From a virus, in the IMG/VR virus record IMGVR_UViG_3300012920_000025, positions 1 through 64,000 of that record: a stretch of DNA of 64,000 bases. One strand, 5' to 3'. The position numbers were made by a program, and so were the translations under genes. Shown piece by piece: positions 1-64,000 of the stretch; positions within the stretch are counted from its first letter, which is position 1; each line of letters begins with the position of its first letter. A model generated the notes under the pieces. That model ran no database searches. It worked only from the letters and a program-made list of their open reading frames with translations, and was not told the DNA's origin.

Positions 1-417
1 GCTCAGATCCACAGAAAGACACTTCGTGGTGGTGCAAACTTTGTTGTTTGTTCTCCAGAAGTTGCTAACATCCTTGAGTTCACAAGCGGTTTCCGCGCTT
101 CTGTTACTGCAGACGCTGACCGTGGTGACATCGGTGCTGTAAAGGCAGGTTCACTTAGCAAGAAGTTTGACGTCATGGTTGACCCATACTTCCCACGCAA
201 CGTGCTCCTTATTGGTCGTAGAGGTAACTCTTTCCTTGAAAGCGGTTATGTATACGCTCCTTACGTACCATTGCAGGTAACGCCTACCATCTTCGGTACG
301 GAAGACTTCGTACCACGTAAGGGTGTTATGACCCGTTACGCAAAGCAGATGGTTAGACCAGATATGTATGGTCTTGTTATCGTGCGTGGTCTCCTTGGTG
401 AGCAAGGCGCTAGTTAA
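1..417 (+). CDS. Major capsid protein, T4 gp23-like (C-terminal part, truncated by window start)
   Basis: Frame open from base 1: AQIHRKTLRGGANFVVCSPEVANILE...GYVYAPYVPLQ...FVPRKGVMTRYAK, the characteristic gp23 C-terminus. Confidence 0.93.
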   Translation, partial: AQIHRKTLRGGANFVVCSPEVANILEFTSGFRASVTADADRGDIGAVKAGSLSKKFDVMVDPYFPRNVLLIGRRGNSFLESGYVYAPYVPLQVTPTIFGTEDFVPRKGVMTRYAKQMVRPDMYGLVIVRGLLGEQGAS

Positions 418-449
418 GATCTGACTTAGGTCAATCATAACAAAGATTT

Positions 450-486
450 AACCCTCGTCATTCATTTGGCGGGGGTTTTGTCTTTT
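450..486 (+). terminator. Rho-independent terminator after capsid gene
   Basis: Stem AACCCTCGTCA/TGGCGGGGGTT followed by a T-rich tract. Confidence 0.8.
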
Positions 487-493
487 CTGAAAT

Positions 494-503
494 CTATTTA
501 ATA
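494..503 (+). promoter_or_regulatory. Putative late promoter (CTANTTA motif)
   Basis: CTATTTAATA; the same motif recurs upstream of about 11 genes, many of them structural. Confidence 0.6.
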
Positions 504-504
504 T

Positions 505-602
505 AACTTTGAATAACCTCCTGGGTCGTAATGCCACTGGCCCTTGAAGAGATTTAACCGAGGTGGCTGGTTATATTTCGTGGAAGTTCAGGTTACGTAA
601 CC
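505..602 (+). ncRNA. Candidate structured, pseudoknotted 5' leader or ncRNA
   Basis: Nested pairings AACTTT/GAAGTT, ATAACC/GGTTAT and GGGTC/GGCCC; loop GCCAC pairs with GTGGC; palindrome GGTTACGTAACC follows. Confidence 0.45.
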
Positions 603-630
603 ATATAACAAAATATAGGAGGAATATATT

Positions 631-1200
631 ATGGGTAGTAGAAGATTAGGTAGAAAGAGACTATTCTCTTTGGAAAAGCAGGGTGAGAGTCTTACAAAGA
701 CACAGTTGTCAACCGGCGCAGGAATTGAAGCAGCGCTCGTTAGAGCAACCCAGATTAGAGATGGCGCTTTGATTATAACCGAATTAATGGTGGATCTGGG
801 TGCAACTGGTATTGAATCGCACGGAGCGAACAAGGCGATTGGTATTGACGACGGAACCGCAGATGCAACACTTTTTAAGTGGACAGAAAGTTTGTTTGGT
901 CAACTTTTGGATGTTGACATGATGTGTGCAGAGGATCTTGCAGGTGGTGGTGTTAATGCTATTCTTTCTGCAAAGGCAACAGCAGTTCTCGCCAAGGGTG
1001 CAAGTAACGGTAATACAGATCACTGCACGATTGCGGCAGCAGTTAAGGGTGACAATGTATCAGCGACCAACATCACCTCGAAGTCCGCAGCAAATGTTCA
1101 CTTTTACCTTCACACCGATTCAGCAACAGACGCTGCATATACTGGCGGAAAACTCATTATTAGAGTAACCGGATACGACGTTAGTGTACCAGATGCTTAA
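631..1200 (+). CDS. Hypothetical virion protein (possible head decoration protein)
   Basis: 189 aa, strong SD (AGGAGG), Arg-rich N-terminus, beta-rich body, directly downstream of the capsid gene. Confidence 0.6.
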   Translation: MGSRRLGRKRLFSLEKQGESLTKTQLSTGAGIEAALVRATQIRDGALIITELMVDLGATGIESHGANKAIGIDDGTADATLFKWTESLFGQLLDVDMMCAEDLAGGGVNAILSAKATAVLAKGASNGNTDHCTIAAAVKGDNVSATNITSKSAANVHFYLHTDSATDAAYTGGKLIIRVTGYDVSVPDA

Positions 1201-1216
1201 AAGGAGGATTTGAAAG

Positions 1217-1333
1217 ATGACTAGAAGAAGAAGAAAGGTGCAACCTGCCCCTAAAAAGGCAGCACCAAAAAAAGTTGAAAAACCAAAGGTTGAAGAACCA
1301 AAGGTTGAAAAGACTGAAAAAGAGAAAGAGTAA
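1217..1333 (+). CDS. Small Lys/Arg/Glu-rich protein (38 aa, not in ORF track)
   Basis: AAGGAGG SD then MTRRRRKVQPAPKKAAPKKVEKPKVEEPKVEKTEKEKE*. Confidence 0.6.
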   Translation: MTRRRRKVQPAPKKAAPKKVEKPKVEEPKVEKTEKEKE

Positions 1334-1340
1334 ATCTTTC

Positions 1341-1371
1341 ATAACCCCCCGAAAGGGGGGTTTATTTTTTT
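1341..1371 (+). terminator. Rho-independent terminator
   Basis: CCCCCC-GAAA-GGGGGG followed by TTTATTTTTTT. Confidence 0.9.
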
Positions 1372-1411
1372 GTAAAAGATGTTATACTAGTTTAAGTTAA
1401 AGGAGTTAAAG

Positions 1412-1777
1412 ATGGGTAAACGTAGAAAAAGAATGATGATGAAGAAGTATGCAAAAAAGTATGCACTTCAAAGAAAAACCTTGGGATTTGATAAGGAAGA
1501 GGAAATGATTGAAATCGATATGACTACAGGTGAAGAGATCAAGGAAGAAGAAACTGTGAAAGTTGTTTCAAATAAAGAAGAAAAAGTTGAAAGTGAATCT
1601 CCTCCTTGGAATCCAGAACCAGAACTTCAAATAGTTCAAATTGAAGAACCAAAGGTCGAACAAGCACCCCCACCAGTCGAAGCGAAGAAACCAACTCGCA
1701 AAAGAGCGCCAAGAAAAAAGGCAACAACAACAAGAAAAACTTCAACAAGGAGATCTGCAAAGAAGGCAGAAGAGTAG
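1412..1777 (+). CDS. Basic/acidic low-complexity protein (histone-like tail)
   Basis: SD AAGGAG; basic N- and C-termini (KKPTRKRAPRKKATTTRK) around an acidic core. Confidence 0.7.
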   Translation: MGKRRKRMMMKKYAKKYALQRKTLGFDKEEEMIEIDMTTGEEIKEEETVKVVSNKEEKVESESPPWNPEPELQIVQIEEPKVEQAPPPVEAKKPTRKRAPRKKATTTRKTSTRRSAKKAEE

Positions 1778-1844
1778 TCAAGACGAAGTCCCCAAGTGTT
1801 TTGTTAAGTTTGAGACTATTTACTAAAGCACGGAGGACTTATGA

Positions 1845-3449
1845 ATGGCACTACCTACTTTGTTACCTGCCAGTAACTCAAGTAAGAGCATCTTACCTGA
1901 AACTGGAAGTCACGGTAACGTAAATAGACTACTACCATATAAGATATATTCAGAAAATAGCAGTACTCTGTTTTCTGGAAACTTTGTATCTGGCGCAGTT
2001 GATCAAGTAGCATACACCTACAAAAAGTTGGGTGGCGATGTTTTGGACATCGAACTATCAGAGGGTAACATATACGCTGCATACGAAGAGTCTGTATTAG
2101 AATATTCTTATCTTATTAATGTACATCAAGCAAACAATGCTCTACCGAGTTTTTTAGGGCATGCTACAGGCACTTTTGACCACAAGGGGGAGTTAACATC
2201 AGGACCCGTATCTGCGAGTCTTAAATACCCCAAATTTGACTATGGTTTTGCAAGAAACGTCTCAGAGCGTATGGGCGCAGAAGTTGGATTGAAAGACTCG
2301 GTTCAGTATTCTGCTTCTTTTGCAGTTAATACTGGACAGCAAGATTATGACCTGCAGGATATCATATCTTCAAGAACTAATGCATTTGCAACAGGGTCGG
2401 TGACTATATCTGATAATTCAGAACTTAATGCGGAAGATACAATTGTTATTGTGACAACAGACGGTACAACTGTCACTGCCACAGCACATGCAGCAACAAC
2501 AACAAACTCAGACACAAACTCTCCAACATTTCAGATTGGCGCAGGCGCTGCAGCAACAGCAACAAACTTGGCAACTTGTTTGGATGCTAATAGCAAACTA
2601 ACTGCGACAGCAGATGGAACCGAGGTTACGATAATCCAGTCTGTGGCAGGAAGAAAGGGCAACACCTCTATCACTCTTACGGACTCTGGCACCGCCGGAA
2701 TGACAAAGTCTGACTTTACAGGCGGCACAACAATAGATTACGTAGGCAAGATAGATGGTAAAAGAATACTAATCAAAAAAGTCTACTACAAAACACCACA
2801 AGCAATGTGGAGATTTTATGGATACTACGGGGGGTTGAATGTTGTAGGGAACTTCTCAAACTACGGACAGTTCTCAGATGACTCAACGTTCCAGTTGGTA
2901 CCGACTTGGCAGAACAAATCGCAAGCGCTTGCGTTTGAGGATGCGATTTACACTAGGATGTCACACTGGTCATACGAACTAAGAAACAATAAGATAAGAT
3001 TGTTTCCAACGCCATTCAGTGGCGGACCGAAGAGGATGTGGGTTGAGTTTTCAGTTCCTGCATCCAACATTACAGATGACACAAATGGAAGATCCGGAAT
3101 AGAAGGGGTTAACAACATGAACACACTTCCTTTTTCTAATCTTCCATATGATACGATTAACTCAATCGGCAAGCAATGGATCAGAAGATTTGCTCTCGCT
3201 CTTTCCAAAGAGATGTTAGGGTTAGTTAGATCAAAATTTGCAACATTACCGATACCAGGCGAAAGCGTCACGCTTAACGGATCTGACCTTGTTAGTCAAG
3301 GCAAAGAAGAGCAGAACGCCTTAAGAGAGGAACTGAAAGCAACATTGGCAGAATTGACTTACACTAAGATGTCTGAACAAGAGGCAACAATAGTTGATAA
3401 TTCTGAAAAGGTTTTACAAAGGATACCATATTCGGTATATGTGGGGTGA
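1845..3449 (+). CDS. Neck/head-completion protein, T4 gp13-like, with inserted domain
   Basis: KLGGDVLDIEL...WIRRFALALSKEMLGLVRSKF..IPGESVTLNGSDLVSQG resembles gp13; late motif at 1816. Confidence 0.8.
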   Translation: MALPTLLPASNSSKSILPETGSHGNVNRLLPYKIYSENSSTLFSGNFVSGAVDQVAYTYKKLGGDVLDIELSEGNIYAAYEESVLEYSYLINVHQANNALPSFLGHATGTFDHKGELTSGPVSASLKYPKFDYGFARNVSERMGAEVGLKDSVQYSASFAVNTGQQDYDLQDIISSRTNAFATGSVTISDNSELNAEDTIVIVTTDGTTVTATAHAATTTNSDTNSPTFQIGAGAAATATNLATCLDANSKLTATADGTEVTIIQSVAGRKGNTSITLTDSGTAGMTKSDFTGGTTIDYVGKIDGKRILIKKVYYKTPQAMWRFYGYYGGLNVVGNFSNYGQFSDDSTFQLVPTWQNKSQALAFEDAIYTRMSHWSYELRNNKIRLFPTPFSGGPKRMWVEFSVPASNITDDTNGRSGIEGVNNMNTLPFSNLPYDTINSIGKQWIRRFALALSKEMLGLVRSKFATLPIPGESVTLNGSDLVSQGKEEQNALREELKATLAELTYTKMSEQEATIVDNSEKVLQRIPYSVYVG

Positions 3450-3455
3450 TAACGG

Positions 3456-3947
3456 ATGAGCGACAACAAATGGAATCAACCTGATGCTCCTCCACCACCA
3501 TTATTTACTGGAAAAAAGGAGAGAGACCTTGTAAAGCAGGTCAGCGACGAACTTGTAGAAAGAGTCGTCGGGCAACAGATTGTATATTATCCTATTTCAA
3601 TTGAGGAAACAAACTTTCATCCAATATATGGAGAAGCGTTGAATAAAACTTTTCTCAATCCAATCAGAGTCTACGCTATGGTTGAGTGGAAGGGGTATGA
3701 AACCGAGACTACCAACTTAGGTGTCGATAGATTGTCAAAAATCACAGTTCACTTTCACAAGCGGAGATTGACAGAGGACCAAAATCTCTTTGTTAGGGAA
3801 GGTGATTTCATATTGTACGGGGAGACTTATTATGAGATTGCAACATTGAATGAACCAACAAGAATCTTTGGTCAGAGAGAGCATATGATGGAAATATCAG
3901 CAGAATGCATCAAGGCAAGAGAGGGTTTGTTCAATGGAACGCAATAA
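3456..3947 (+). CDS. Neck protein, T4 gp14-like
   Basis: Follows gp13; GQQIVYY..IYGEA...VREGDFI motif pattern. Confidence 0.65.
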   Translation: MSDNKWNQPDAPPPPLFTGKKERDLVKQVSDELVERVVGQQIVYYPISIEETNFHPIYGEALNKTFLNPIRVYAMVEWKGYETETTNLGVDRLSKITVHFHKRRLTEDQNLFVREGDFILYGETYYEIATLNEPTRIFGQREHMMEISAECIKAREGLFNGTQ

Positions 3948-4779
3948 ACCTTTTAGCGAAGGGTTGAATGAGTACGAAGGAAAGCGTATTTTCGATTCTC
4001 GCATAGAAAACATCGACACAGCAATGTATAAGTTTGTTGACGAGCAAATGAACTTGCATGCTCACGATGGAACCTCATTTAGAAAGGTTCCAGTTGTCAT
4101 GGCATCCGCAGAAAGGTCCGCTTTGACGAAAGGAGACCTGAGAGTTCGCGACGATGAGGGCGCGCTTATCATGCCCATCATTACAATCGAAAGAACTTCA
4201 ATGGTCAAAAGTCCAACAGATAAAGGCACAGTCTGGGCAAACGTTCCCGCACTGGACAAAGTCAAGGGCGGCAACATTCCTACAATGCAGAGAGTACTGC
4301 AGGGCAAAACATCTAATTTTAAAAATGCACATGCAAAGAAAAAGCACGGTCAACTAAACTTCCCAAGCAAAGTTGACAAGACTGTGTATCAAACAATATC
4401 AATACCTTTGCCGGTGTATGTGACAATAATGTACGAGATAACTATCAGAACAGAATATCAACAACAAATGAATGAGTTGGTGGTACCGTTCATGACGGTT
4501 CCGGGTGGTATCAATTATATTATTATTAGAGATGAAAATCACAGATATGAAGGATTCATTGAACAAGACTATTCGCATGAGAATAACATAAGTAACTTTT
4601 CGAATGAAGAGAGGAAGTTTGAAACAAAGTTTAACATAAAGGTGTTGGGGCACCTAATCGGAGACGGAGTAAATCAAGAGACACCTCAAAAGGTTGTCAA
4701 TGAAACTATTGTTGAAGTAAAAATCCCAAGAGAAAGGGAGTCTTTGTCTCCCGAAGAGTTAGCAAAGTACGGTTTATGA
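3934..4779 (+). CDS. Tail terminator/sheath stabiliser, T4 gp15-like (copy 1)
   Basis: KVPVVMAS.ER, MPIITIERT and PVYVTIMYEITIRTEYQQQMNELV motifs; synteny after neck genes. Confidence 0.7.
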   Translation: MERNKPFSEGLNEYEGKRIFDSRIENIDTAMYKFVDEQMNLHAHDGTSFRKVPVVMASAERSALTKGDLRVRDDEGALIMPIITIERTSMVKSPTDKGTVWANVPALDKVKGGNIPTMQRVLQGKTSNFKNAHAKKKHGQLNFPSKVDKTVYQTISIPLPVYVTIMYEITIRTEYQQQMNELVVPFMTVPGGINYIIIRDENHRYEGFIEQDYSHENNISNFSNEERKFETKFNIKVLGHLIGDGVNQETPQKVVNETIVEVKIPRERESLSPEELAKYGL

Positions 4780-4788
4780 GGTTAAGAA

Positions 4789-7700
4789 ATGGTTAAGAAA
4801 CCAACAAAACCAAGAAGAATAGAGGATAGACCATTTCCTCGTTCTACGATGGAGACGATTGATACAGCGCTCAATAGATTTATTGACGAGACGCTGGATA
4901 TTAATTGTGTTACAACAACTGGTTTTAGAAAAGTTCCAGTTATTTGGTCTTCTGCAGAAAGGATGTATCAAAGCAAGAGCGATCAGAGAATCCGAGATAA
5001 AGAAGGTGCACTGGTTATGCCTCTTATCACCATTGAAAGAACTGGTGTTGTTAAGGATCCTTCTAGGAAGGGCACAGTCTATGCTAACATACCACCTATT
5101 GATAAAGTTAAGGGCGGGTCAATTCAGGTATCCAGAAAGATAAACCAAGGCAAAACTTCAAACTTCGAAAACGCGCACTCAAAGAGAAAGCGCGGTCAAC
5201 TAAACTTTCCAGGACAACCATCAGGAAAGACAGTATATCAAACACTTACTATACCTTTACCGGTTTACGTAACTGTGCAGTATGAAATAACTCTTCGCTC
5301 TGAATATCAAGAGCAGATGAACCAAATGCTAACGCCGTTCATCACTAGACCTGGTGGCATTAACTATGTCATTATTGAAGAGGGTAGATTAAGATACGAG
5401 GCGTTTGTTCAAGAAGACTTCGCGCAGAACAATAACATTAGAAACTTTTCGAATGAAGAAAGAAAGTTTGAAACCAAGATAAGAATAGAGGTTTTAGGAT
5501 GGTTAACATCTCAAGATAAGAATAGTTTACAACCAGACTATGCAGTGAGAGAGGGCGTTGTAGAGGTCAAGATTCCAAGAGAGCGAATCGCACTTGCAGA
5601 TGAACTCGCCACCGCTAACGGCAGACTTTATGGACTAGAGGGTATTAAACCAAATGCTAGGTTTAGAAAGGCGCAAGATCAAGATGATCCTATCTCTACA
5701 TTTGGTCCGGTCTCGGTACCTGGATTACCAGTTGCTGCTTCCTCTGCAGGGACAGAATCGGGGACAAGGGGACCAGAGGGACCACCAGGACCCGCAGGCG
5801 CAACAGGTGCGCAAGGTGTCAGCGTATCGACAGTAACAATAAATGTATCAAATGAACTGATAATAACATTATCAGATGGAACTGTCTTTAATCTTGGTAA
5901 CGTGAAGGGTGATACTGGTGCACAAGGACCTGCAGGTGCAGACGGCGCAGACGGCACTACTCCTAGTCTTGATGCTATATCGGGATCTACTTTAACTTAT
6001 CACAATCTTTCTGGATCTAGTCTAACCCTCAATCTCTTGAACTCTGATAGGGCAGCGATCAATGATTTCGATTTTACTTCTTTGTCTGGGTCCACAGGTA
6101 CGATACATAACCTAAGTTCTTCCGCAATAACATCAAACCTGTTGGACACAGACAGGGTACTCGCAGGGGACCTTGATGTAACCAGCATTGGTGCTACTGG
6201 AGATTTGAGTTTTACAGGATTGTCTTCCGGTACTCCTGTCGAAGGCAAGTACTTAGCGTTAGATGCGAGCAATAATGTTATACTCGCTGCAGCAACGGCA
6301 GAATCAGCGAACTTTACCACTATATCAGGATCTAGTTTAACGTATCACAACATGTCAGGTTCAACTTTAGATTTAAATCTGTTAGACTCAGATAGAATAG
6401 AGGTTAATGACCTTTCTGGTTCAACAGGCACTATACACAATTTAAGTTCATCGATTGTCACCTCAAATCTTCTAGACGCAGATAGGTTAGAGGCAAGAGA
6501 CATCACAGGCACAGGTGAAGTTACCCTAACCGGACTCTCATCGGGTACTCCTGTTTCCGGGAAGTTCCTCGCTCTTGATTCAAGCGACAATGTTATCTTA
6601 ACTGCTGGCGGCGGTGGCGGCGGAGGCGATGGCACCATTGGAGCAGCAGAGGATGGAACATATACTGACGGTCTATTTACGGATTTTGTTTCTTCAACCC
6701 CAATTGGCACACCTATTGATAGGTTTAACGAAGTGTTGAAAATTCTTGCACCCAGTCCAGCGCCAGATTTAAGTTCAATATTGCACAATATATCTAATGG
6801 TACCACCGCAAAACTGTCTTTTGGATCTAGTCAGACTGTTCCTCACTATTCTTCCTCCGCTACTGCTGCAGGTTTTTCAGCAATAGACATAAATGGGTCA
6901 TATGCTCCTGGTAATAGTGATAGAAATTTAAGGTTAGGTATTTACGATGGAACACAGGACATTACTGGAATTTTAAACGACAACGTCGCTGCTAGTATAA
7001 CAAACGGATATGTGGCATATGCTTCTGGCGCGTATGGAAACGCAGAAGTAGGCACATTGAAGTTGGAAGTAAACGGCAATATTATACACTCCATTGATTT
7101 ATCGGGATTTAACGGCATCGGCGCACCTGGATCTGGAACAGATTCTGATTTAAATGCTGAAACTTCTGGTTTTACAAACACATCCCTAACGGCATCAAGT
7201 TTTGATGGAAATAATGCCGAATGGTTTATTTTCAAACACAGAACAGGAAGGTTTAAGGTAGACGTAAACTCGATGGTGCCAGGGTGGAACTACGCCAGAG
7301 TCATACACACTGTGGGATCAACCAACAAACAAACTAATTTTATTGAATGGATAAATGACCCATCTGGATCTCAAAACAACTTGGCAGCAAACAATGGAAG
7401 AATAGAAGACATAACGCTGATAGGTTCAAAATACCTTTCCGGCGTACAATATAACACGGACGCAACAGCAAACTATAAAGTTGATATCTCCAACTTATAT
7501 CAGAACGTTTATCAAGCATCTGGCACTCCTATCAGTTTCACTGTTAGCAACTCAACAACACCATCGGCACAGTCTGTCCCATCTATTAATCACGCTGGCG
7601 GTGAAGACAGCACAAAGACGTTGAGTGTGACTGCTGGACTGGACGTGAACACCGATTCCCTACTAAATGGTGCTATAACTGCTAACGTAACAGCGACTCA

Positions 7701-10173
7701 TCCTTTAAAGTCGACTTTGTCAAACGCTGGATCTGCGACAACTGGTAATGGATTTTTGATAGACAATAGAACTCTTGCAAGTAGTAACTTGAGTGAGAAG
7801 TTTCACGACGAAACGTTTAGAAAAGTATCGTCTTCCTATGACGCTCAGGCAGATGTAACCAATGGATCTAATACTTGGAACTCGCAAACTCATATGCTCG
7901 CACCAAACACTGCATTTGCAGACGGACTCCTCTTTTTCAACCAAAGACTTTACAGTCCAATCGATGGCGATGTTCCTAATGGTGGTAATTTTAGCGGCAT
8001 TTCAAATGTTGCTGCAGGGCAACCAGATTATTCTTCTGTGACTGGCACAAGAACATTTTTTAGAGCAGTTCAAAACAAGACTGGTGCTACAAAGAGAGAC
8101 ATGAAGATCGAGACAACTAAAAATAGCACTACCTTTGATGCAAATGCACTTGCTGCAGCAAACGCTCACTTATATGTAAAAATCCCAGGAAGCACAGGTT
8201 GGATGGATGCTTCTCAAAACTTTGTATATGGAGAAGTCACTACCGATGACGGTGCCCTGATATCAGGCGCTACAAATGATGTAGACAGTGGTAACAACAC
8301 ACACCACTTAACATTCGGATTGGCATCTGTTGCAAACAACGAATATGTCATGGTGAAGATTGAGGCAGATGAGAGTTGGGCAGGATATATATCCCAGATG
8401 GATTTTACCATCGGCGCAACAAGCAACACTGCAAACAGCGCCCCTGAACTAGATGATATAGACGCAAATGATACAGGATTAAACGACGCTCGATTATCTT
8501 TTGGAACTTCGCACACAATTCCAAACTACTCTGATGTTACTGGTTCTGGCATTGGTCTATCAGATTTTAACACCAATGGTTACTATAGTGTTAGTGGCGA
8601 CAGACGCGGCGTATTTAGTGCTTTCGCCGTCATTGATGGAGAACTAAATGAGGATGTAGCGTCAAGTGGAAACAATTATCCAACCAATGCTTTCAATGAT
8701 GCACTTGATGGGTCTCTTGTTTTGGAGGTTAACGGAAATGAAGTACATACTACGGATATATCAGACACAATAAATGCAAAGTCTAATAACTTTAATGGAA
8801 ATAGTTCAGGGTTCAGTGTCTCTTCTGTGAACTGGAGCACAACAGTGGATAACATCCCTGATTATACTAAACCATATAGAACTGGCACGTATCAGATTGG
8901 CACTGCAGATCAAAGACTCGGTTGGAACTATGCAAGAGTTATACACAGGAAAGCGGGAGGTGATGTAAATACAAATTATGTAGAGTGGGTTGTGGATACT
9001 GATTCGAATGCTTTATCCTCTGCTGACGTAGTATTCAATAATTTCTATCACACCGACGTATTCAAACAGTCAGGAGTTGGGTACTTTTCATCTAGACCAA
9101 CTGCATCTTTTGAGTACAGAGCGTCAAACGTGTATAGAAATGTCCATCAGAATGGTAATGCAATATCATTCCCGACTACGACTAACTGTTCTATCTCAAA
9201 CATCAGAGTGTCAGGGTCCGGTGTTACTACAAAGTCCGTTGCTGCAGCGACCACTAGTTTGGCAGACCTCAATAATGTAGGAAATTGTCACATTAAGGAT
9301 ATAGAAGTTTCAGGAACTGCATTGTTTGACAATCTAACTTCAATAGTGGAAGAGTTCGATGTTCACAACTCTCACAATGTAACTGTATCTTCTAGGATTA
9401 TACACCCGCACAAAGCAACCCTTAACGTATCATCCGTAACAAAGTCAAACTTAATGGTGTACAATGGAACACTAGGGAGTACAAATGCGAATACGAATGA
9501 ATACTTTAATAGAGAAGATTACAGAATTATCTCAGGCACATATAATAACCAAGCAGATCCTCCAGCAGGCGGCAATGCGTGGAACGCTAACCTATCTGTT
9601 AATGACAACGGAAATCACCCATCACATGCTGATGGTTTGGTGTTTGTTAATGGATATTTAATGTCACCAAAAAAGGTTGGCGTTGCAGGAGATACAAGAA
9701 ATATAGACGACGGTGGGACTTTGCAGGCACCAGCAGGCAATCCCAACTACAGCACCCTAACGATAAGCACAAGAACGTTCGTAAGACACTTCCAGAACAA
9801 TACTAGTAACGACAGAAGCAGCATTACTATAACTCTTTATGGTAGTGGTGCACTAGTTAAAAGAGCGACGTCTTTAGGGGCGAATGGAAATTTTTATTTA
9901 GATGCGAAGATACCCGGAAAAACAGCATGGTTGGATGTGGGCACTGCCTATTCCAGCAATAACCCAAGTACAGATGGAGCAGGTGCACTAGACGGTGCAG
10001 ATCCTGGAAATCCATCTATCACTATAGCACCAGGTGGGACTGGCGTAGTTTGCAATTTTAACGGGGAGTCTTTGCTTGGAACTGGCGGCGGTTCTGAGTA
10101 CATAGTTCTTAGAATCACTGCTGATGAAAACTGGTCAGGTTATTTAACCAGGATTCAGGTTGCATATAGTTAA
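4789..10173 (+). CDS. gp15-like domain (copy 2) fused to collagen-like repeats, SGS repeats and two tandem ~560-aa beta-rich domains (large fibre/appendage)
   Basis: N-terminal ~270 aa are a clear paralog of 3934..4779; GPEGPPGPAGATG; duplicated GWNYARVIH-containing domains. Confidence 0.75.
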   Translation: MVKKPTKPRRIEDRPFPRSTMETIDTALNRFIDETLDINCVTTTGFRKVPVIWSSAERMYQSKSDQRIRDKEGALVMPLITIERTGVVKDPSRKGTVYANIPPIDKVKGGSIQVSRKINQGKTSNFENAHSKRKRGQLNFPGQPSGKTVYQTLTIPLPVYVTVQYEITLRSEYQEQMNQMLTPFITRPGGINYVIIEEGRLRYEAFVQEDFAQNNNIRNFSNEERKFETKIRIEVLGWLTSQDKNSLQPDYAVREGVVEVKIPRERIALADELATANGRLYGLEGIKPNARFRKAQDQDDPISTFGPVSVPGLPVAASSAGTESGTRGPEGPPGPAGATGAQGVSVSTVTINVSNELIITLSDGTVFNLGNVKGDTGAQGPAGADGADGTTPSLDAISGSTLTYHNLSGSSLTLNLLNSDRAAINDFDFTSLSGSTGTIHNLSSSAITSNLLDTDRVLAGDLDVTSIGATGDLSFTGLSSGTPVEGKYLALDASNNVILAAATAESANFTTISGSSLTYHNMSGSTLDLNLLDSDRIEVNDLSGSTGTIHNLSSSIVTSNLLDADRLEARDITGTGEVTLTGLSSGTPVSGKFLALDSSDNVILTAGGGGGGGDGTIGAAEDGTYTDGLFTDFVSSTPIGTPIDRFNEVLKILAPSPAPDLSSILHNISNGTTAKLSFGSSQTVPHYSSSATAAGFSAIDINGSYAPGNSDRNLRLGIYDGTQDITGILNDNVAASITNGYVAYASGAYGNAEVGTLKLEVNGNIIHSIDLSGFNGIGAPGSGTDSDLNAETSGFTNTSLTASSFDGNNAEWFIFKHRTGRFKVDVNSMVPGWNYARVIHTVGSTNKQTNFIEWINDPSGSQNNLAANNGRIEDITLIGSKYLSGVQYNTDATANYKVDISNLYQNVYQASGTPISFTVSNSTTPSAQSVPSINHAGGEDSTKTLSVTAGLDVNTDSLLNGAITANVTATHPLKSTLSNAGSATTGNGFLIDNRTLASSNLSEKFHDETFRKVSSSYDAQADVTNGSNTWNSQTHMLAPNTAFADGLLFFNQRLYSPIDGDVPNGGNFSGISNVAAGQPDYSSVTGTRTFFRAVQNKTGATKRDMKIETTKNSTTFDANALAAANAHLYVKIPGSTGWMDASQNFVYGEVTTDDGALISGATNDVDSGNNTHHLTFGLASVANNEYVMVKIEADESWAGYISQMDFTIGATSNTANSAPELDDIDANDTGLNDARLSFGTSHTIPNYSDVTGSGIGLSDFNTNGYYSVSGDRRGVFSAFAVIDGELNEDVASSGNNYPTNAFNDALDGSLVLEVNGNEVHTTDISDTINAKSNNFNGNSSGFSVSSVNWSTTVDNIPDYTKPYRTGTYQIGTADQRLGWNYARVIHRKAGGDVNTNYVEWVVDTDSNALSSADVVFNNFYHTDVFKQSGVGYFSSRPTASFEYRASNVYRNVHQNGNAISFPTTTNCSISNIRVSGSGVTTKSVAAATTSLADLNNVGNCHIKDIEVSGTALFDNLTSIVEEFDVHNSHNVTVSSRIIHPHKATLNVSSVTKSNLMVYNGTLGSTNANTNEYFNREDYRIISGTYNNQADPPAGGNAWNANLSVNDNGNHPSHADGLVFVNGYLMSPKKVGVAGDTRNIDDGGTLQAPAGNPNYSTLTISTRTFVRHFQNNTSNDRSSITITLYGSGALVKRATSLGANGNFYLDAKIPGKTAWLDVGTAYSSNNPSTDGAGALDGADPGNPSITIAPGGTGVVCNFNGESLLGTGGGSEYIVLRITADENWSGYLTRIQVAYS

Positions 10174-10183
10174 GGACTAGATT

Positions 10184-11605: not shown

Positions 11606-11665
11606 AAAAGGGGACTATTTATACAAGTGATTGTTTACACATTTTGTTACAGGAGGTTAAGATAA

Positions 11666-12091: not shown

Positions 12092-12124
12092 GCACTATTT
12101 ATAGGGAGAGAGGTATAATATAAT

Positions 12125-25935: not shown

Positions 25936-25936
25936 C

Positions 25937-54438: not shown

Positions 54439-55162
54439 GGATTTAAAGAACTTTGAAGACTTCGTGATTGTAAATGAAACCACCAAGAAGAAAAAGAAAG
54501 AAAAGAAAAAAGAAGAGCAAATATTAGAAGAGTTTGTTGATGAATCTACCGGGAAGGAAGGCAAGCAACCAATCTATATCATCAACAATATCGCTGGTAA
54601 GGACGATAAGGATGACATCAGGGCAATCAATTGTTATGGCGACATAACAGAAAGAATGGGTTCCGAGGTTGTTCAGGCAATGCTGTACTTCAATCACTCA
54701 AGACTTGATATTATTGAAGATGCAGAAGGCAATACACACGAGGTGGTAAGACCATTTAGGATGTACATCTCCACTCATGGTGGCATAGTCTCTGATATGT
54801 TCTCCATTCTTGATGTTATGGACATGATTAAAGAAGACTGTGTTATTGAGACAGTCGGTCTTGGCAAGGTAATGTCAGCGGGTGTTCTAATGCTTGCGAA
54901 CGGGACTAAGGGCAGAAGAAAGATTGGAAAGAACTGCAGGGTGATGCTTCACAGTGTCATCAGTGGACACCATGGTTCTTTCCCTAACGTAGAGAATCAA
55001 ATGCGTGAAACAAAGGCATTGCAAGATATGTATTTTGACTACCTCTGCTCATGCACCAAGTTGACTAGGAAGAAGATTAAAAAGTTACTTTTAAACAACG
55101 TTGATGTCTATTTATCTGCAGAGGAAGCAATCGAATATGGCATTGCTGATGAGTTTCTATGA
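54416..55162 (+). CDS. clpP: ClpP-family protease
   Basis: YISTHGG, GKVMSAG, RVMLH, DVYLSAEEAIEYGIAD (Ser-His-Asp triad present). Confidence 0.9.
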   Translation: MPKKLSDKDLKNFEDFVIVNETTKKKKKEKKKEEQILEEFVDESTGKEGKQPIYIINNIAGKDDKDDIRAINCYGDITERMGSEVVQAMLYFNHSRLDIIEDAEGNTHEVVRPFRMYISTHGGIVSDMFSILDVMDMIKEDCVIETVGLGKVMSAGVLMLANGTKGRRKIGKNCRVMLHSVISGHHGSFPNVENQMRETKALQDMYFDYLCSCTKLTRKKIKKLLLNNVDVYLSAEEAIEYGIADEFL

Positions 55163-56130
55163 GTGATTTAGACCTTTTAGTTGAAATGTTTGCCAAGGTG
55201 GGTCGACCCGTTGTTGAGAAGAAGTCTGCTGGTAAAAAACCAACCATAACTTATGAACCAATTGTTTTGGACCTCAGTTGGATGAACGACTACGACGCGG
55301 CAACTGCTCCAGAATCTCAAAGAAGGTTTGAGACGGCCGTAGCAAACATTGCCCCTGGTGACATATCACAACTTGGTGAATTGGTATCCAACCTTAACAA
55401 CTTCCTAAATACACCCGCCAAGCAGTTGATCAATGATCACGTCACTGCTATCGCAATGGTGGATGTTATGAGGACGTTGTATCACCTATTAACGTCACCC
55501 AACCCGTCTGTAAAGGGGTATACTTTTGAGCAGTTCATCGCAAAACTCTTCGGCGGCAAAGTTATAAAAGGAATCGCAGACAACATTGCTGACGTTGAGT
55601 TTCCGCAGGGTAATGTGTCGCTAAAGTTTGTAAAACCGAAGTCATCAGTAAAAGGTTCCTATGCGAATCTAAGTGCAGAGGTTCAGAAGAATGAAGAGAT
55701 AAGGTATTATGTCGGAGAGAAGATCTTAGACAAGAAGAATCCGAAGATTCGATTCTATACCTTCGTAATCACTCGCGAACAAGCCATATACATGCTCCGA
55801 ACAATTAAGAAAAACAAGATGAGTCCACTATTGGATAAGAAAGGTAACGCGTTCTCTCTTTCACCAACTGAGTTGAATAAAGGTGTCTATCAGATGAAAG
55901 AACTTGGGGTCCTTAACATGGGAGACATGGTCGGTAAGACTGACGCGATCTTTCGGTTGCTGGATCAGAAGTTTCAAGGATTGTTTTCCACCCTACAGGA
56001 ACTCGCAGAGGCAGCGGATAGATTTAAGACAGACTCCGCTACAACATCAGACCCTGGTAAAAGACAGCAGTCCAAGCAAGACACGATAAAGAAGACTGAC
56101 GCTACAAAGGCAGCAGCACAAAAAATCTAA
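55159..56130 (+). CDS. Hypothetical protein, possible PD-(D/E)xK nuclease fold
   Basis: GYTFEQFIAKLF...IADV.....VSLK. Confidence 0.45.
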   Translation: MSDLDLLVEMFAKVGRPVVEKKSAGKKPTITYEPIVLDLSWMNDYDAATAPESQRRFETAVANIAPGDISQLGELVSNLNNFLNTPAKQLINDHVTAIAMVDVMRTLYHLLTSPNPSVKGYTFEQFIAKLFGGKVIKGIADNIADVEFPQGNVSLKFVKPKSSVKGSYANLSAEVQKNEEIRYYVGEKILDKKNPKIRFYTFVITREQAIYMLRTIKKNKMSPLLDKKGNAFSLSPTELNKGVYQMKELGVLNMGDMVGKTDAIFRLLDQKFQGLFSTLQELAEAADRFKTDSATTSDPGKRQQSKQDTIKKTDATKAAAQKI

Positions 56131-58089: not shown

Positions 58090-58103
58090 AACAAAGGAGA
58101 GAA

Positions 58104-59972: not shown

Positions 59973-59977
59973 ATTAG

Positions 59978-60469: not shown

Positions 60470-60476
60470 ATGAAGC

Positions 60477-60503
60477 GGAGGGGCATTTGCCCCTCCGTTA
60501 CTT
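60477..60503 (+). terminator. Probable terminator hairpin
   Basis: CGGAGGGGCA-TT-TGCCCCTCCG followed by a short T-rich tail. Confidence 0.7.
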
Positions 60504-60547
60504 CTATCACCTACTAATTACTACAACGCAAAAAAGACGGTTTAATC

Positions 60548-61485: not shown

Positions 61486-61607
61486 ATTGTTAGAAACCAT
61501 ATCGCTTTTGTTATGGTCAGCAATACTAACTGGCGGCATCATTCTTCTCAAACATCACTTTGAAGGTAAGACCGAACAAACTAAATGTATCTGCCCCTAG
61601 TTAGTGT

Positions 61608-61850
61608 ATGAGGTCAAGGAAGCCGCAAATCGGAGACATCGTTCATCATTGCCTGTTTTTGCGCTATGAATGGTCTGCTCTTCTGTTAAAAATAGAAAAA
61701 CAACAAGGAGACACAGAAAAAGGGTTCGTAAAGATGATTCCAGGAACTAAATATGAAGACTACTTCTTAAGAATAAAAGAGTCATCCAATGGTTACGGAT
61801 GGGTCTACAAGAAGTGGTTGTGGGTCTATATTCAGGAGGAATCAACATGA
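61608..61850 (+). CDS. Hypothetical protein (SH3-like)
   Basis: PQIGDIV.H N-terminus; 80 aa. Confidence 0.55.
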   Translation: MRSRKPQIGDIVHHCLFLRYEWSALLLKIEKQQGDTEKGFVKMIPGTKYEDYFLRIKESSNGYGWVYKKWLWVYIQEEST

Positions 61851-62221
61851 ATTTAAAGAAATTAAAACCTATATTTTATGAAAACTCAAGAGTTCCCATC
61901 TGGTTGTCGAAGATCGCACCTATCAATGTGTGGGCAAATTCATTTGCAATCTGGGTTTGGTGCAGAGGAGAGATGTCAGAAAAAACTAAGAGGCACGAGA
62001 CGATCCATTTTCAGCAGCAACTGGAACTTGGATTCGCCTTACATTGGATATTGTACGCCTTATCGTGGACAGCGGGTTACATCAGGTATGGAAATGGTCG
62101 AGATGCATACTACAATTGTATGTTCGAAAGAGAGGCATATGACAATGACCAGGATGAAGATTACCTTGAAAACAGACCACGCTTTGCATGGATTAAATAT
62201 ATCGGGAGACCAGTGTTATGA
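61847..62221 (+). CDS. Zincin-like HExxH protein
   Basis: RHETIHFQQ...FEREAY; SD AGGAGG. Confidence 0.7.
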   Translation: MNLKKLKPIFYENSRVPIWLSKIAPINVWANSFAIWVWCRGEMSEKTKRHETIHFQQQLELGFALHWILYALSWTAGYIRYGNGRDAYYNCMFEREAYDNDQDEDYLENRPRFAWIKYIGRPVL

Positions 62222-63132
62222 TTATCAAGAATGGATCAAGAGGTGAAGACGTCAAAGAACTTCAGCGAGCACTTAAAGTCCTTGGATACAACGTTGGTGT
62301 GTCGGACGGTATCTTCGGCACCGCTACAGAGATACAAGTAGAGAAGTTCCAAGAATCGGTAGAACTACATCCAGATGGAATTGTTGGGAAGGGCACACTC
62401 AAAGAAATAAATGAGGCACTCGACAAATCTGGAAACTCTAACTTGAAGTTCGAACTAGGGGACTATCCAGACCCAGAAGAACCATCAAATAGAATGTCTT
62501 GGACAAAAGTAGAGGCGGACCAAGTGGAAGGTAGTAAGGGTTATTCATACTTCAGGTTGCGAGAGGACGCAGCAAAAGCGTACAATGCGCTCAGGTATGA
62601 AGTCTTGTCTTTGGGTGGCGTCATCACTAGTGCTGGCGCTAAGAGACCACTATCTGATAGCAAGAGGATGAAAAGTAGGTCAATTAAGTCGCTACACTAC
62701 ACCGGACTTGCGTTTGATATGGCACTTGACTCCGGTATGAATAACCCAAAAAGGGAAAGGTTTGTTATCGAGGAACTAGATGATAGAGAGTGGAACGTTT
62801 GGTGTAGAACCAGCAAAGAAAGTGTCGACATCAGGAAGATACAGGGTTATACTTACAACAACACTAAAGTAACGGTTGAAGATAGGTTCTTTTCTTTTAC
62901 TGATATTGCGAAGAAGCATGGGTTTCACCCTATCAAGTCCAGAAGATCTTTTAAGAAGGGTGGTAGTTATCTCGGAGCAGAATGGTGGCACTTCCAGTAT
63001 GAGAAGGCACTAGAACCAGGTACATCAACCTTTGGCGGAGAACTGTTGAAGATTTACACTCTTGCAGAATGCAGGAACTTTGGTCCATGGGAAACTGTAA
63101 AGCACTGTACGTGGCAAGAAAGTTGGTGGTAA
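62218..63132 (+). CDS. Endolysin: PG-binding domain plus M15-like Zn peptidase
   Basis: GSRGEDVKELQRAL..DGIFG..T..DGIVGKGT; SLHYTGLAFD; EWWHF. Confidence 0.88.
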   Translation: MIIKNGSRGEDVKELQRALKVLGYNVGVSDGIFGTATEIQVEKFQESVELHPDGIVGKGTLKEINEALDKSGNSNLKFELGDYPDPEEPSNRMSWTKVEADQVEGSKGYSYFRLREDAAKAYNALRYEVLSLGGVITSAGAKRPLSDSKRMKSRSIKSLHYTGLAFDMALDSGMNNPKRERFVIEELDDREWNVWCRTSKESVDIRKIQGYTYNNTKVTVEDRFFSFTDIAKKHGFHPIKSRRSFKKGGSYLGAEWWHFQYEKALEPGTSTFGGELLKIYTLAECRNFGPWETVKHCTWQESWW

Positions 63133-63142
63133 AGAAAATAGC

Positions 63143-63171
63143 TTGACATTCAATCAAAGATTCCCTATATT
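63143..63171 (+). promoter_or_regulatory. Sigma70-type promoter
   Basis: TTGACA-17-TATATT. Confidence 0.75.
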
Positions 63172-63201
63172 ATATAAACAGCAACAAGAAAGGAATAGAG
63201 T

Positions 63202-64000
63202 ATGAATCTCGGATATGCATGCATTAACATGAACCTATCTACACTTCCCAAATCAAAGCGAGTCACGACGAATCGCTCCATGATCAAGAAGACCTTCCAG
63301 CAGAAGGGTATTGCCTACGCATCAGAGTTGGGATTGCAGAACTGCAGAGACCTTCTGACTATTCTGCAGTGGAACGAAGCAAACGGTATCAAGTTTTTCC
63401 GAATGACTTCGGATCTCCTACCTTGGTCTTCAGAGTACAACCTCAAAGACTTGCCTGACTATGAAGACATATGCTATTGGCTTTGCGAAGCAGGGATGTT
63501 CGCAGAAGAACATGGACATCGTATCACTACACACCCTGGTCCGTTCAACGTGCTTGGTTCACCAAATGAGAACACGGTTCGTAAAACTATCAAAGACCTT
63601 GAAACACACTCAGAAGTGTTCGACCTGATGGGTCTACCTGATACCCCTTATGCTAAGATTAATATTCACATCGGTGGTACATATGGTGGCGACTTCTCAA
63701 ATACAGCAGACCGTTGGTGTCGCAACTTCCTAAAGTTATCGCCCAACTGTCAAAACCGCATCACGGTGGAGAACGACGATAAGGCATCAATGTGGTCTAC
63801 TCGCCATCTGTATGATTACATTCATAAAGTAATTCACATTCCTATTGTGTTTGACTATCATCATCATCGATTTTGCACAGGTGGACAGACTGAAGGCGAG
63901 GCACTACAACTTGCAGCATCAACTTGGCACGGCGTGACACCGGTCGTACACCTATCTGAGTCTCGCCGCGAGGAACAGGGCGATGTGAAGATCAAAGAAC
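63202..64000 (+). CDS. uvsE: UV damage endonuclease (UVDE), truncated by window end
   Basis: MNLGYACIN..., FFRMTSDLLP, HPGPFNVLGS, INIHIGG.YG, VENDD, VFDYHHH, VHLSES. Confidence 0.95.
   Translation, partial: MNLGYACINMNLSTLPKSKRVTTNRSMIKKTFQQKGIAYASELGLQNCRDLLTILQWNEANGIKFFRMTSDLLPWSSEYNLKDLPDYEDICYWLCEAGMFAEEHGHRITTHPGPFNVLGSPNENTVRKTIKDLETHSEVFDLMGLPDTPYAKINIHIGGTYGGDFSNTADRWCRNFLKLSPNCQNRITVENDDKASMWSTRHLYDYIHKVIHIPIVFDYHHHRFCTGGQTEGEALQLAASTWHGVTPVVHLSESRREEQGDVKIKE

Follow-up and report, generated by a model that had tools for sequence, protein, structure and literature searches.

Locus and source phage

We analysed a window of 64,000 nucleotides (positions 1..64000 of IMGVR_UViG_3300012920_000025), which lies in a contig (G000) of 86,538 bp that covers about 47% of the genome. 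The source phage is an uncultured marine tailed phage, a myovirus, and its contig encodes a T4-type sheath, tube and baseplate together with a replisome of DnaE and mini-PolA, all genes being on the plus strand. The features on which the analysis rests are these:

1..64000, no strand: window-wide depletion of RGCY, 61 observed against about 670 predicted from base composition
566..12255, no strand: longest RGCY-free stretch by RGCY positions (11.7 kb), virion genes
12410..14683, plus strand: Ala/Gly/Ser-rich virion gene; 58 RGC, 57 followed by R and one by Y (12412, ATG GCT)
19084..19089, no strand: CGGCCG, an exempt GGCC context, one of nine in the window (other starts: 19423, 24488, 25769, 26331, 43932, 51478, 55334, 61404)
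23240..23243, plus strand: GGCC imposed by a Trp-Pro pair (TGG CCN) and thus beyond the reach of synonymous change (others in the contig: 23754, 31528 and, past the window, 76820 and 85174)
23779..28132, plus strand: two virion genes of about 720 aa each, occupying most of the densest bin of residual sites
39290..41152, plus strand: nrdJ; 36 RGC, one RGCY (GGCC, 40042), 15.0 by shuffle
41149..41538, plus strand: IscU; one RGCY (41475)
55159..56130, plus strand: 323-aa protein, member of a large family confined to phages; possible nuclease of the PD-(D/E)XK type

Extent of the RGCY depletion

The four words that make up RGCY are the bottom four of all 256 tetramers in the window, with 12 AGCT, 9 AGCC, 11 GGCT and 29 GGCC against zero-order expectations of 230, 160, 165 and 115; RGCR and YGCY reach or exceed expectation (AGCA 438/281, TGCT 288/188). 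The whole contig holds 88 RGCY. As a null we shuffled synonymous codons inside each ORF, which keeps the protein and the per-gene codon usage. The coding sequence of the window (58 ORFs) contains 54 RGCY against 476.1 in shuffled sequences (sd 15.3, minimum 440 in 200 shuffles), and that of the contig (112 ORFs) contains 77 against 627±18 (minimum 572 in 300 shuffles), an under-representation that exceeds what protein sequence and codon usage explain. A sequence-only reading of this DNA had claimed a window-wide depletion and set a codon-shuffled null beforehand as the test of it; the claim stands against base composition and against the shuffle. The same reading saw GGCC as less depleted than the other three words, correctly, as the observed/shuffle ratios are 0.05 for AGCT, 0.08 for both GGCT and AGCC, and 0.42 for GGCC.

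Both orientations are equally depleted in the contig despite the single-strand gene layout (10 AGCC and 15 GGCT in coding sequence), and outside the called ORFs 11 RGCY remain where 71 are expected in 6,882 nt. Every 5-mer that contains AGCT or AGCC/GGCT is depleted, to 0.02-0.16, so the avoided core comprises four bases.

Codon contexts and selection on the word

All three reading frames are purged, to 0.09, 0.06 and 0.20 of the shuffle expectation. The last value belongs to the frame ..R|GCY, in which a C>T or G>A change would alter Ala and which is nevertheless purged five-fold, through GCY>GCR. After a Y-ending codon Ala is written GCY 509 times out of 1078, and after an R-ending one 50 times out of 717, which agrees with the earlier remark that GCT and GCC are common after C or T. 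The AGC codon is used in 3 of 589 cases before Y against 161 of 1382 before R, GGC in 12 of 660 against 387 of 1289, and CTN for Leu after RG in 1 of 175; before CY, the counts are 1 of 131 for GAG, 1 of 124 for AAG and 1 of 66 for CAG. Much of the site loss came about through changes at the outer R and Y positions, and on the scale of the contig about 550 codon contexts were rewritten across 80 kb of coding DNA, with roughly nine tenths of RGCY gone. The synonymous routes were GCR for Ala after R-ending codons, TTR for Leu after RG-ending codons, Ser and Gly codons other than AGC and GGC before Y, and GAA, AAA and CAA before CY; RGCY was lost wherever some such route was open.

Three genomes served for comparison: G001 (121.5 kb, 67% complete), which is purged throughout, and the sister genome G002 (192.8 kb) and G003 (186 kb, complete), both unpurged. 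Of 214 positions that carry RGCY in G002 and code for an identical pair of amino acids in the two phages, this phage retains the word at 8 (3.7%), against 108 of 369 (29%) for control words. Among the 206 replacements, 87 (42%) are C>T or G>A and 119 (58%) are of other types (Y>R 46, C>A 27, C>G 12, R>Y 10, plus others). The purge is selection on the DNA word and not methylation-driven decay, because all frames are purged and 58% of the replacements are neither C>T nor G>A. The earlier reading had offered either selection against the site or mutational erosion from RGCY methylation; the purging of three frames, ..R|GCY included, and the changes at the outer R and Y speak for the former, and the latter found no support. 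The search for cytosine methyltransferases that it proposed, run on the contig (86.5 kb) and on G001, recovered none of PF00145 or PF01555. The only methylases found were two Dam-class adenine enzymes, and GATC is undepleted (314/318).

Residual sites

Between 565 and 17811 just two RGCY occur, at 12256 and 12412, and the chance of the gap at 566..12255 is about 6e-4, given the contig's own residual density and allowing for 88 starts. The Ala/Gly/Ser-rich gene carries its single RGCY against 20.9 by shuffle (minimum 11 in 500 shuffles); here, as in nrdJ, the sequence-only reading had by eye found essentially one site, and the counts confirm it. The densest bin, 24001-28000, holds 13 RGCY, mostly GGCC and several of them in CGGCCG. 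GGCC is spared in some contexts only, and CGGCCG is exempt from the purge: it occurs 11 times in coding sequence against 3.0 by shuffle, a count matched in 0 of 200 shuffles, and it is undepleted elsewhere too (20 against 11.3 in G001, 22 against 21.6 in pooled relatives). RGCY is also retained in tRNA genes, and residual sites turn over: at conserved residues, only 6 of the 42 residual sites of G001 are common to this phage. The leftover sites are of four kinds, namely those in tRNA genes, forced Trp-Pro sites, the apparently spared CGGCCG, and recent, transient sites.

Distribution among relatives and cultured cyanophages

In a tail sheath tree of 81 rows, all 17 RGCY-low rows fall in one clade (17/17, support 100), which requires one change, and the sister clade of seven rows is normal for RGCY. 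Within the RGCY-low clade AGCT, AGCC and GGCT are low in every row and GGCC ranges from 0 to 0.39; outside it, 35 rows show depletion of GGCC only. Other words are avoided in a lineage-specific manner (GATC 0/49 in L004 and 0/52 in L005, CCGG 0/244 in G001), as expected if restriction pressures change.

We also sampled 25-30 kb from each of five cultured, marine T4-like Kyanoviridae: P-SSM2, P-TIM40, S-PM2, S-SCSM1 and Bellamy. RGCY is low in all five (AGCT 0.14-0.45, AGCC/GGCT 0.02-0.21, GGCC 0.00-0.17), independent of host genus (Prochlorococcus or Synechococcus), and CCGG is absent from four of the five stretches, as it is from G001. The Prochlorococcus podovirus P-SSP7, in contrast, is unpurged (AGCT 2.17, AGCC/GGCT 1.06). 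The cyanomyoviruses differ from our phage in belonging to another virus family, with sheaths that align along a third to two fifths of their length at about 30-36% identity, and in having GGCC as the lowest word, whereas AGCT is lowest here; psbA, moreover, is absent from this phage's lineage, unlike this comparison group.

The sole hint at a host is a weak one: IscU is 75-82% identical to its best 80 bacterial matches listed, nearly all of them (two excepted) from Pseudomonadota, to which the host may accordingly belong. RGCY is undepleted in the bacterial loci around these matches (n=80, minimum 0.66, median 1.0). That the depletion is a host fingerprint, as first proposed, is unproven: the trait tracks the phage clade and is carried by five of five cyanomyoviruses, while a podovirus infecting Prochlorococcus lacks it. 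From this pattern the cutter may be the host's, that of rival phages or the phage's own; together with the stability over a deep phage clade, it is as compatible with a cause in the phage as with one in the host.

Comparison with known systems

Rusinov and colleagues reportedly described restriction-site avoidance in phage genomes as an anti-restriction strategy against type II R-M systems (BMC Genomics, 2015), and a 2018 phage study is said to have treated the subject as well. Our case resembles such avoidance in its short symmetric word, synonymous removal, lineage specificity and the lack of any protective methylase among the genes searched; it differs in that the word is degenerate, with about three bases of specificity, and that no cognate enzyme was found. 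Among the papers retrieved by our literature search, none reports that phages avoid RGCY.

The depleted words coincide exactly with the recognition set of CviJI, save that GGCC is exempt within CGGCCG. R.CviJI of chloroviruses cuts RG^CY and M.CviJI modifies RGC(Y/G), as quoted in PMC3526282. That system belongs to eukaryotic viruses and protects itself by 5mC, whereas here neither a C5 methylase nor, among the roughly 88 ORFs scanned, a nuclease homologue was recognised in the contig, and we could match the sparing of CGGCCG, an effect of the flanks, to nothing known of CviJI. The clade-A pandoraviruses offer another case of a viral genome that has lost, in one clade and without explanation, a palindromic 4-mer centred on GC: AGCT is described as eliminated with no methylase or nuclease difference to account for it (Poirot et al. 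2019, bioRxiv 10.1101/712018). There, however, AGCT alone is lost, completely and from a eukaryote virus, whereas in this bacteriophage the whole of RGCY is reduced to 5-40%.

Habitat, word and broad virus type are the same in nine marine viral MAGs, 'Myoviridae-like', in which RGCY is reported to carry m4C; among marine viral MAGs no methylated motif is more common, and prokaryotic MAGs seldom share it (Hiraoka et al. 2022, PMC8919816). Those viruses modify RGCY, whereas the present clade deletes it, N4 and C5 methylases not having been found in the contig or G001. Methylation of RGCY is the alternative counter-measure to a threat of this kind, and it implies that the word matters to marine myoviruses.

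A CviJI-like endonuclease as the probable selective agent

On balance, we consider it probable that this phage lineage avoids an endonuclease with CviJI-like specificity, by default a restriction enzyme of the host. Given the depletion, the codon mechanics, the clade distribution and the outcome of the cytosine methylase search, we infer a nuclease as the agent and, by default only, the host as its owner. Natural selection on double-stranded DNA would have cleared the symmetric RGCY from the whole lineage, the agent being a sequence-specific endonuclease (RG^CY, CviJI-like) met inside infected cells. A phage with no cytosine methylase in its contig could lower the number of targets instead, and every site lost would raise the genome's chance of escaping cleavage. 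With 88 sites in 86.5 kb, a classical type II enzyme would still meet many targets, so the model requires either that some genomes escape through methylation or that each site is cut inefficiently; as the contig is about 47% of the genome, the remainder could hold a methylase or nuclease. RGCY cutters are described from chloroviruses and are not known from bacteria.

In the sites that it avoids, a phage preserves a fossil record of the nucleases it has met, and the record here points to an enzyme of about three-base specificity, a kind not known outside chloroviruses. The selective pressure sufficed to recode hundreds of codon contexts across a clade of abundant marine phages, and a matching footprint was measured in well-studied cyanophages. 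Such an enzyme, if found, would bring a cutter of very frequent sites into the repertoire of marine defence or counter-defence and would explain the frequent RGCY methylation in marine viruses. More speculatively, an uncharacterised RGCY-directed cutting activity might be a pervasive force on marine myoviruses, with unrelated lineages, such as this far-T4-like clade and the Kyanoviridae, each purging the word and others methylating it (m4C), and the cutter perhaps a myovirus-borne weapon against host or rival DNA; this tentative view, which we hold less likely to be right than wrong, would account for the untouched podovirus of the same host genus, and under it the exemption of CGGCCG would directly reveal which flanking bases the enzyme prefers. 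A profile of the words RGCY, CCGG, GATC and AATT could also serve to mark links of uncultured phages to hosts or competing phage guilds.

Alternative agents

It is unlikely, in our estimate, that the phage's own nuclease attacks host or rival DNA at RGCY and, for want of a methylase, leaves few sites in its own genome. Inheritance of the trait through a deep phage clade would suit this, as would a purge common to cyanomyoviruses of different hosts and absent from the Prochlorococcus podovirus. The clade moreover encodes the family of the 55159..56130 protein, in which E124, D145 and K156 are invariant and S154 nearly so (120 members, 17-34% identity). The protein may be a nuclease of the PD-(D/E)XK type and is the sole candidate for a phage-borne cutter that we saw; its nearest named Atlas clusters are restriction enzymes, at a score (0.82) that often arises by chance, and its predicted structure agrees in part with a NOV_C model. 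However, no Pfam family common to the 102 members scanned was found, and no PDB sequence match to its core. The unpurged G002 has a homologue at the corresponding place (E 2.3e-12), and the purged cyanomyoviruses are without the family, as tblastn gave no match in 50,697 phage records. RGCY is also far from absent, with 88 sites left, although a self-inflicted cutter should bring them to zero, as happened to CCGG in G001.

Less probable still is that rival marine myoviruses carry cassettes of an RGCY nuclease and methylase which destroy unmethylated co-infecting genomes, so that competitors shed RGCY. The purge in unrelated marine myovirus lineages would agree with this, as would the prevalence of m4C RGCY in marine viral MAGs and its rare sharing with prokaryotic ones, which is drawn from one paper's motif list (PMC8919816). 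No such cassette was seen in this phage, though, and podoviruses sharing the hosts should suffer equally, yet P-SSP7 is unpurged.

We give a similarly low probability to separate agents, one AluI-like (AGCT), one HaeIII-like (GGCC) and a third acting on AGCC/GGCT. The 35 rows low in GGCC only, the variable GGCC of a clade whose other three words are always low, and row L038, which is low in AGCT (0.16) and GGCC (0.17) and not in AGCC/GGCT (1.35), would favour this. However, the non-palindromic AGCC/GGCT is depleted like AGCT in 17 of 17 rows, so one degenerate symmetric specificity explains the pattern in one step, and the three word classes arise together on one branch of the tree.

A constraint at the RNA level or otherwise without a nuclease, such as a ribonuclease or signal that reads RGCY in transcripts, is very improbable. 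Strand symmetry by itself does not tell a DNA target from an RNA one in this contig, because its genes all share a strand and the reverse complement of any RGCY word is again RGCY. A degenerate, dyad-symmetric four-base word with RGCR and YGCY spared is, however, the mark of an enzyme that acts on DNA as a dimer; the depletion extends to DNA beyond the called ORFs, tRNA genes retain RGCY, and cyanomyoviruses, which have genes on both strands, are purged likewise.

The least credible account, and one largely refuted, is decay of methylated RGCY cytosines through deamination: AGTT and AACT exceed the shuffle expectation (1.24 and 1.34 of it), and C>T and G>A rank first and second among single changes relative to G003 and first and third relative to G002, but they do not dominate the losses, the frame in which they alter the protein was not spared, no cytosine methylase was found in the contig or G001, and ratios of 0.05-0.08 are far deeper than usual decay.

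Depletion of RGCY words

The RGCY tetramers (AGCT, AGCC, GGCT and GGCC; R = A/G, Y = C/T) are depleted throughout the window, as a sequence-only reading had claimed, and this depletion is real, large and past any codon or dipeptide explanation. Against base composition, we counted 12 AGCT (230 expected), 9 AGCC (160), 11 GGCT (165) and 29 GGCC (115), which places these words at the bottom of all 256 tetramers. A maximal-order Markov model likewise gives them the lowest observed/expected ratios, except that CGCG falls below GGCC. Across the contig (86,538 bp, estimated completeness 47%; window = bases 1-64000) there are 88 RGCY, or 0-13 per 4 kb, versus 50-105 RGCR per 4 kb.

Exchanging synonymous codons within each ORF preserves proteins, dipeptides and per-gene codon usage, and is a conservative null because the purge has itself shaped codon usage. 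The window's coding DNA (58 ORFs) holds 54 RGCY versus 476±15 after shuffling (minimum 440, 200 shuffles), and that of the contig (112 ORFs) 77 versus 627±18, a wide margin below what codon and dipeptide usage predict. Relative to the shuffle, AGCT stands at 0.05, GGCT and AGCC at 0.08 each and GGCC at 0.42. Non-ORF DNA (6,882 nt) is also depleted (11 versus 71 expected), RGCR and YGCY are enriched, and AGCC and GGCT are equally scarce despite the single-strand gene layout. Our recount of the two genes first put forward as examples, 12410..14683 and nrdJ, agreed exactly with that reading.

The purge touches all three reading frames, with 15 versus 169 expected from the shuffle in frame RGC/Y (the slash marking the codon boundary), 12 versus 203 in.RG/CY. 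and 50 versus 256 in ..R/GCY, and codon choice varies with the neighbouring codon. The depletion of GCCT/AGGC and TAGC/GCTA is a by-product, since AGGCY and TAGCY contain RGCY.

Codon choice by neighbouring context
Ala GCT/GCC: 50/717 after R-ending codon; 509/1078 after Y-ending codon
Ser AGC: 3/589 before Y; 161/1382 before R
Gly GGC: 12/660 before Y; 387/1289 before R
Leu CTN: 1/175 after RG-ending codon; 1164/1883 elsewhere
Glu GAG: 1/131 before CY-starting codon; about half elsewhere
Lys AAG: 1/124 before CY-starting codon; about half elsewhere
Gln CAG: 1/66 before CY-starting codon; about half elsewhere

Selection on the word

We compared orthologous codon pairs encoding identical amino acids in this phage and in the unpurged sister-clade genome G002, which contributes 214 RGCY. 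Only 8/214 (3.7%) are retained here, versus 108/369 unchanged control words (RGCR/YGCY; 29%). The replacements comprise C>T (48), G>A (33) or both (6), together 87/206 (42%), and in 46 of the others the fourth-position Y became R; C>A (27), C>G (12) and R>Y (10) follow, and 16 differ in their two outer bases, which leaves a small number of other kinds. The complete unpurged relative G003 gives the same picture, with RGCY kept at 6/108 sites. Erosion through cytosine methylation, one of two causes suggested from the sequence alone, is thus not borne out: deamination cannot explain the outer-position changes, which argues for selection on the word. So does the five-fold purge of the ..R/GCY frame, where Ala would be lost by either C>T or G>A. 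Dimeric DNA enzymes read dyad-symmetric, degenerate words such as RGCY, and the purge is the product of selection on double-stranded DNA.

Residual sites

The 88 residual sites include three in two tRNA genes, five GGCC forced by Trp-Pro, several of the form ATG GCT and eleven CGGCCG. The purge of GGCC is limited to some contexts: compared with the shuffle, AGGCCN/NGGCCT occurs 5 times versus 51.4, TGGCCA 8 versus 10.5, GGGCCC 5 versus 2.6 and CGGCCG 11 versus 3.0, a count that 0/200 shuffles reach. The purged relative G001 repeats the CGGCCG exemption (20 versus 11.3 by composition), and other clade members, pooled over 219 kb, have 22 versus 21.6; the remaining GGCC contexts in both sets lie at ~0.05-0.8 of expectation, with GGGCCC in G001 at the top. 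Either the agent is inactive on CGGCCG or this context is protected.

Residual sites are not conserved, as only 6/42 G001 sites at conserved residues are RGCY here. Their density is uneven: 566-12255 has none and the contig's final 2.5 kb (84001-86538) has 11, four to five times the contig average. This terminal segment consists of small genes without G001 orthologues and may be recently acquired DNA in which the purge is still pending.

Gene content and habitat

The contig has a GC content of 41% and carries all credible genes on the + strand.

Features of the contig
18585-21695, +, T4-type tail sheath (Pfam)
Within contig, +, tail tube; baseplate protein (Pfam)
+, PolA (370 aa); gp32-like SSB; RecA/UvsX; 5'-3' exonuclease; DnaB (Pfam)
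39290-41152, +, nrdJ (Pfam)
41149-41836, +, IscU and IscA (Pfam)
46715-50140, +, DnaE-type Pol III alpha (Pfam)
+, GroES; ThyX; dUTPase; GMP reductase; ClpP; GroEL; Hsp20 (Pfam)
63202-64161, +, UvdE UV-damage endonuclease (Pfam)
69563-70456 and 70970-71989, contig past the window, two Dam-class (D12) adenine methylases
Contig past the window, thymidine kinase; RNA ligase; tRNA-Arg; tRNA-Met

IscU, IscA and UvdE are auxiliary genes uncommon in phages. An island at contig 69563-73728 (L002:5563-9728), missing in the relatives examined, combines the two D12 methylases with a 395-aa protein and a pair of small ORFs of unknown function. The 395-aa protein was considered as a nuclease and rejected, as the protein Atlas places it next to ParB_N clusters and it looks ParB-like there.

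Marine metagenomes contain the stretch: six sequencing runs from three other studies at 0.24-0.42, and one further marine run at 0.99 that may be its source; runs with smaller shares were left out of this result. None of the cultured phages is close: blastn with 7.9 kb as query found nothing among 50,697 phage records. The closest cultured tail sheath, that of Microcystis phage Mel-JY01, has 38% identity across 47% of the protein, and the closest cultured nrdJ relative, also from Mel-JY01, is likewise distant (65.5%). psbA was not found in this contig or in G001-G003. IscU has 75-82% identity to the IscU of the 80 best bacterial matches listed, which, two excepted, are spread over many Pseudomonadota without resolution; none of these 80 bacterial loci is RGCY-poor. 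A heterotrophic proteobacterial host would be our weak guess.

Distribution among relatives and cultured phages

A tail-sheath search of IMG/VR returned 406 relatives, from which we retrieved 80 loci. All 16 loci with sheath identity >=64% are RGCY-low (AGCT 0-0.22, AGCC/GGCT 0-0.14, GGCC 0-0.39), and those at <=54% are not. In a FastTree sheath phylogeny of 81 rows (70 distinct), all 17 of the RGCY-low rows fall in a single clade (local support 100), for which one change suffices; the seven rows of the sister clade have normal RGCY, and lowness of GGCC only occurs in 35 rows elsewhere. Another gene led to nine more RGCY-low loci, representing six distinct sequences of the same clade. G001 (121.5 kb, 121,518 bp, 67% complete) is purged throughout (AGCT 0.08, AGCC/GGCT 0.11, GGCC 0.34), and G002 (192.8 kb) and G003 (186 kb, 100%) show no strong tetramer avoidance.

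Other words vary among these relatives. CCGG is absent from G001 (0 versus 244 expected) and stands at 0-0.04 in 7/9 of the additional loci (L196-L204). The closest relatives, the 13-kb loci L004 and L005, lack GATC (0/49 and 0/52) alongside a total RGCY purge; this contig has normal GATC (314/318) and two Dam-class methylases, so that both counter-strategies occur within one clade. The family is therefore a mosaic of avoidances, in which RGCY is the deep, stable avoidance of this clade.

We also counted words in 25-50 kb of each of ten named phages.

Observed/expected ratios in cultured phages (AGCT; AGCC/GGCT; GGCC)
P-SSM2 (cyanomyovirus): 0.15; 0.02; 0.00
Bellamy (cyanomyovirus): 0.14; 0.15; 0.06
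S-SCSM1 (cyanomyovirus): 0.29; 0.16; 0.08
P-TIM40 (cyanomyovirus): 0.38; 0.20; 0.09
S-PM2 (cyanomyovirus): 0.45; 0.21; 0.17
HTVC008M (pelagimyophage): 0.55; 0.23; 0.16
Mosig (pelagimyophage): 0.81; 0.68; 0.97
P-SSP7 (Prochlorococcus podovirus): 2.17; 1.06; 0.09
KVP40 (Vibrio phage): 1.00; 0.70; 0.18
Mel-JY01 (Microcystis phage): 0.11; 0.46; 0.88

Like this clade, the T4-like cyanomyoviruses are RGCY-low in 5/5 sampled, and CCGG is wholly absent from the sampled stretch in four of them. RGCY is partly low in HTVC008M and not low in Mosig, where GATC stands at 0.17 and 0.05, respectively. In P-SSP7 and KVP40 GGCC alone is low, in Mel-JY01 mainly AGCT. These counts show that other phages besides this clade bear the footprint; marine myoviruses commonly have it, long-published genomes already display it, and it does not simply track host genus. 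Mel-JY01 (20-50 kb) has CCGG at 5.7x expectation (175 versus 31) and GATC at 0/99, and P-SSP7 (10-35 kb) has AGCT at 2.2x expectation.

Possible agents of the purge

The purge is a heritable trait of an entire marine myovirus clade, all of it uncultured, and a cytosine methylase is absent from the DNA examined. The search for such enzymes that the sequence-only reading had proposed was run on this contig (estimated 47% complete) without a PF00145 or PF01555 match, and neither C5 (PF00145) nor N4/N6 (PF01555) methylases occur in any of five records (this contig and G001-G004). PF09208 (MspI) nuclease was absent from 4/4 records, G001 included. Scans of ~88 contig ORFs and 10 of G001 against Pfam, PHROGs and NCBIfam found no recognised restriction nuclease; the sole methylases and nucleases they yielded were the two Dam-class methylases, UvdE and the 5'-3' exonuclease.

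What most probably lies behind the purge is avoidance of an endonuclease whose specificity resembles that of CviJI (CviJI specificities are quoted in PMC3526282). We lean towards a resident enzyme of the infected cell, by default the host's, which would drive the loss of RGCY.

A nuclease of the phage's own seems unlikely, even though the 323-aa product of 55159-56130, from a phage-only family, is a candidate. Its nearest named Atlas clusters are the restriction enzymes SmaI, Eco47II and ThaI, at a score of 0.82 that according to the tool is often chance, and NOV_C resembles part of its predicted model. A profile search gave 566 representative clusters, and two alignments, one of 120 members and one of 102, each 17-34% identical to the query, show G120, E124, D145 and K156 as invariant and S154 as nearly so, an E...D...SxK pattern that in our reading recalls PD-(D/E)XK nucleases. 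Nine of nine viral-contig relatives of the product are RGCY-low, but are not independent, because all come from the same clade and a single sequence accounts for four of them. Against this candidate, unpurged G002 carries a homologue at the syntenic place, cultured phages are without one (tblastn, 50,697 phage records), and nuclease identity is unsupported by Pfam or PDB matches: the 102 scanned members share no Pfam family, and a profile search of PDB sequences matched the coiled-coil tail alone. The first ~15 residues of the product are highly conserved (16-member alignment), with L-x-E motifs that, we presume, recall T4 prohead-protease processing signals; judging from these residues, it could be a packaged protein.

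A system of a rival phage as the cutter is improbable, and we consider the action of several separate enzymes just as doubtful. Methylation decay or an RNA-level cause retains little probability.

To our knowledge, no bacterial enzyme of RGCY specificity is known. In the literature covered, we found no description of RGCY avoidance in phages, and further literature on cyanophages and site avoidance gave nothing relevant. The sole work found to tie RGCY to phages is that of Hiraoka et al. 2022 (PMC8919816), which reports that among the methylated motifs of marine viral MAGs RGCY, carrying m4C, is the commonest, present in nine 'Myoviridae-like' viral MAGs and seldom shared with prokaryotic MAGs. 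Pandoraviruses, according to Poirot et al. 2019 (bioRxiv 10.1101/712018), have a clade-specific, unexplained AGCT loss. Restriction-site avoidance is already known in kind; what is new here, and makes the purge worth experiment, is that it concerns RGCY, how deep it goes, that CGGCCG is exempt, that no bacterial enzyme of this specificity is known and that the purge recurs in marine myoviruses.

The sole other strong tetramer signal of the whole contig is AATT (244 versus 511 by shuffle, 0.48). It stands at 0.41 by composition and is low in every flank context (0.21-0.62); its avoidance does not extend to the wider family and is common to the nearest relatives (0.46-0.72).
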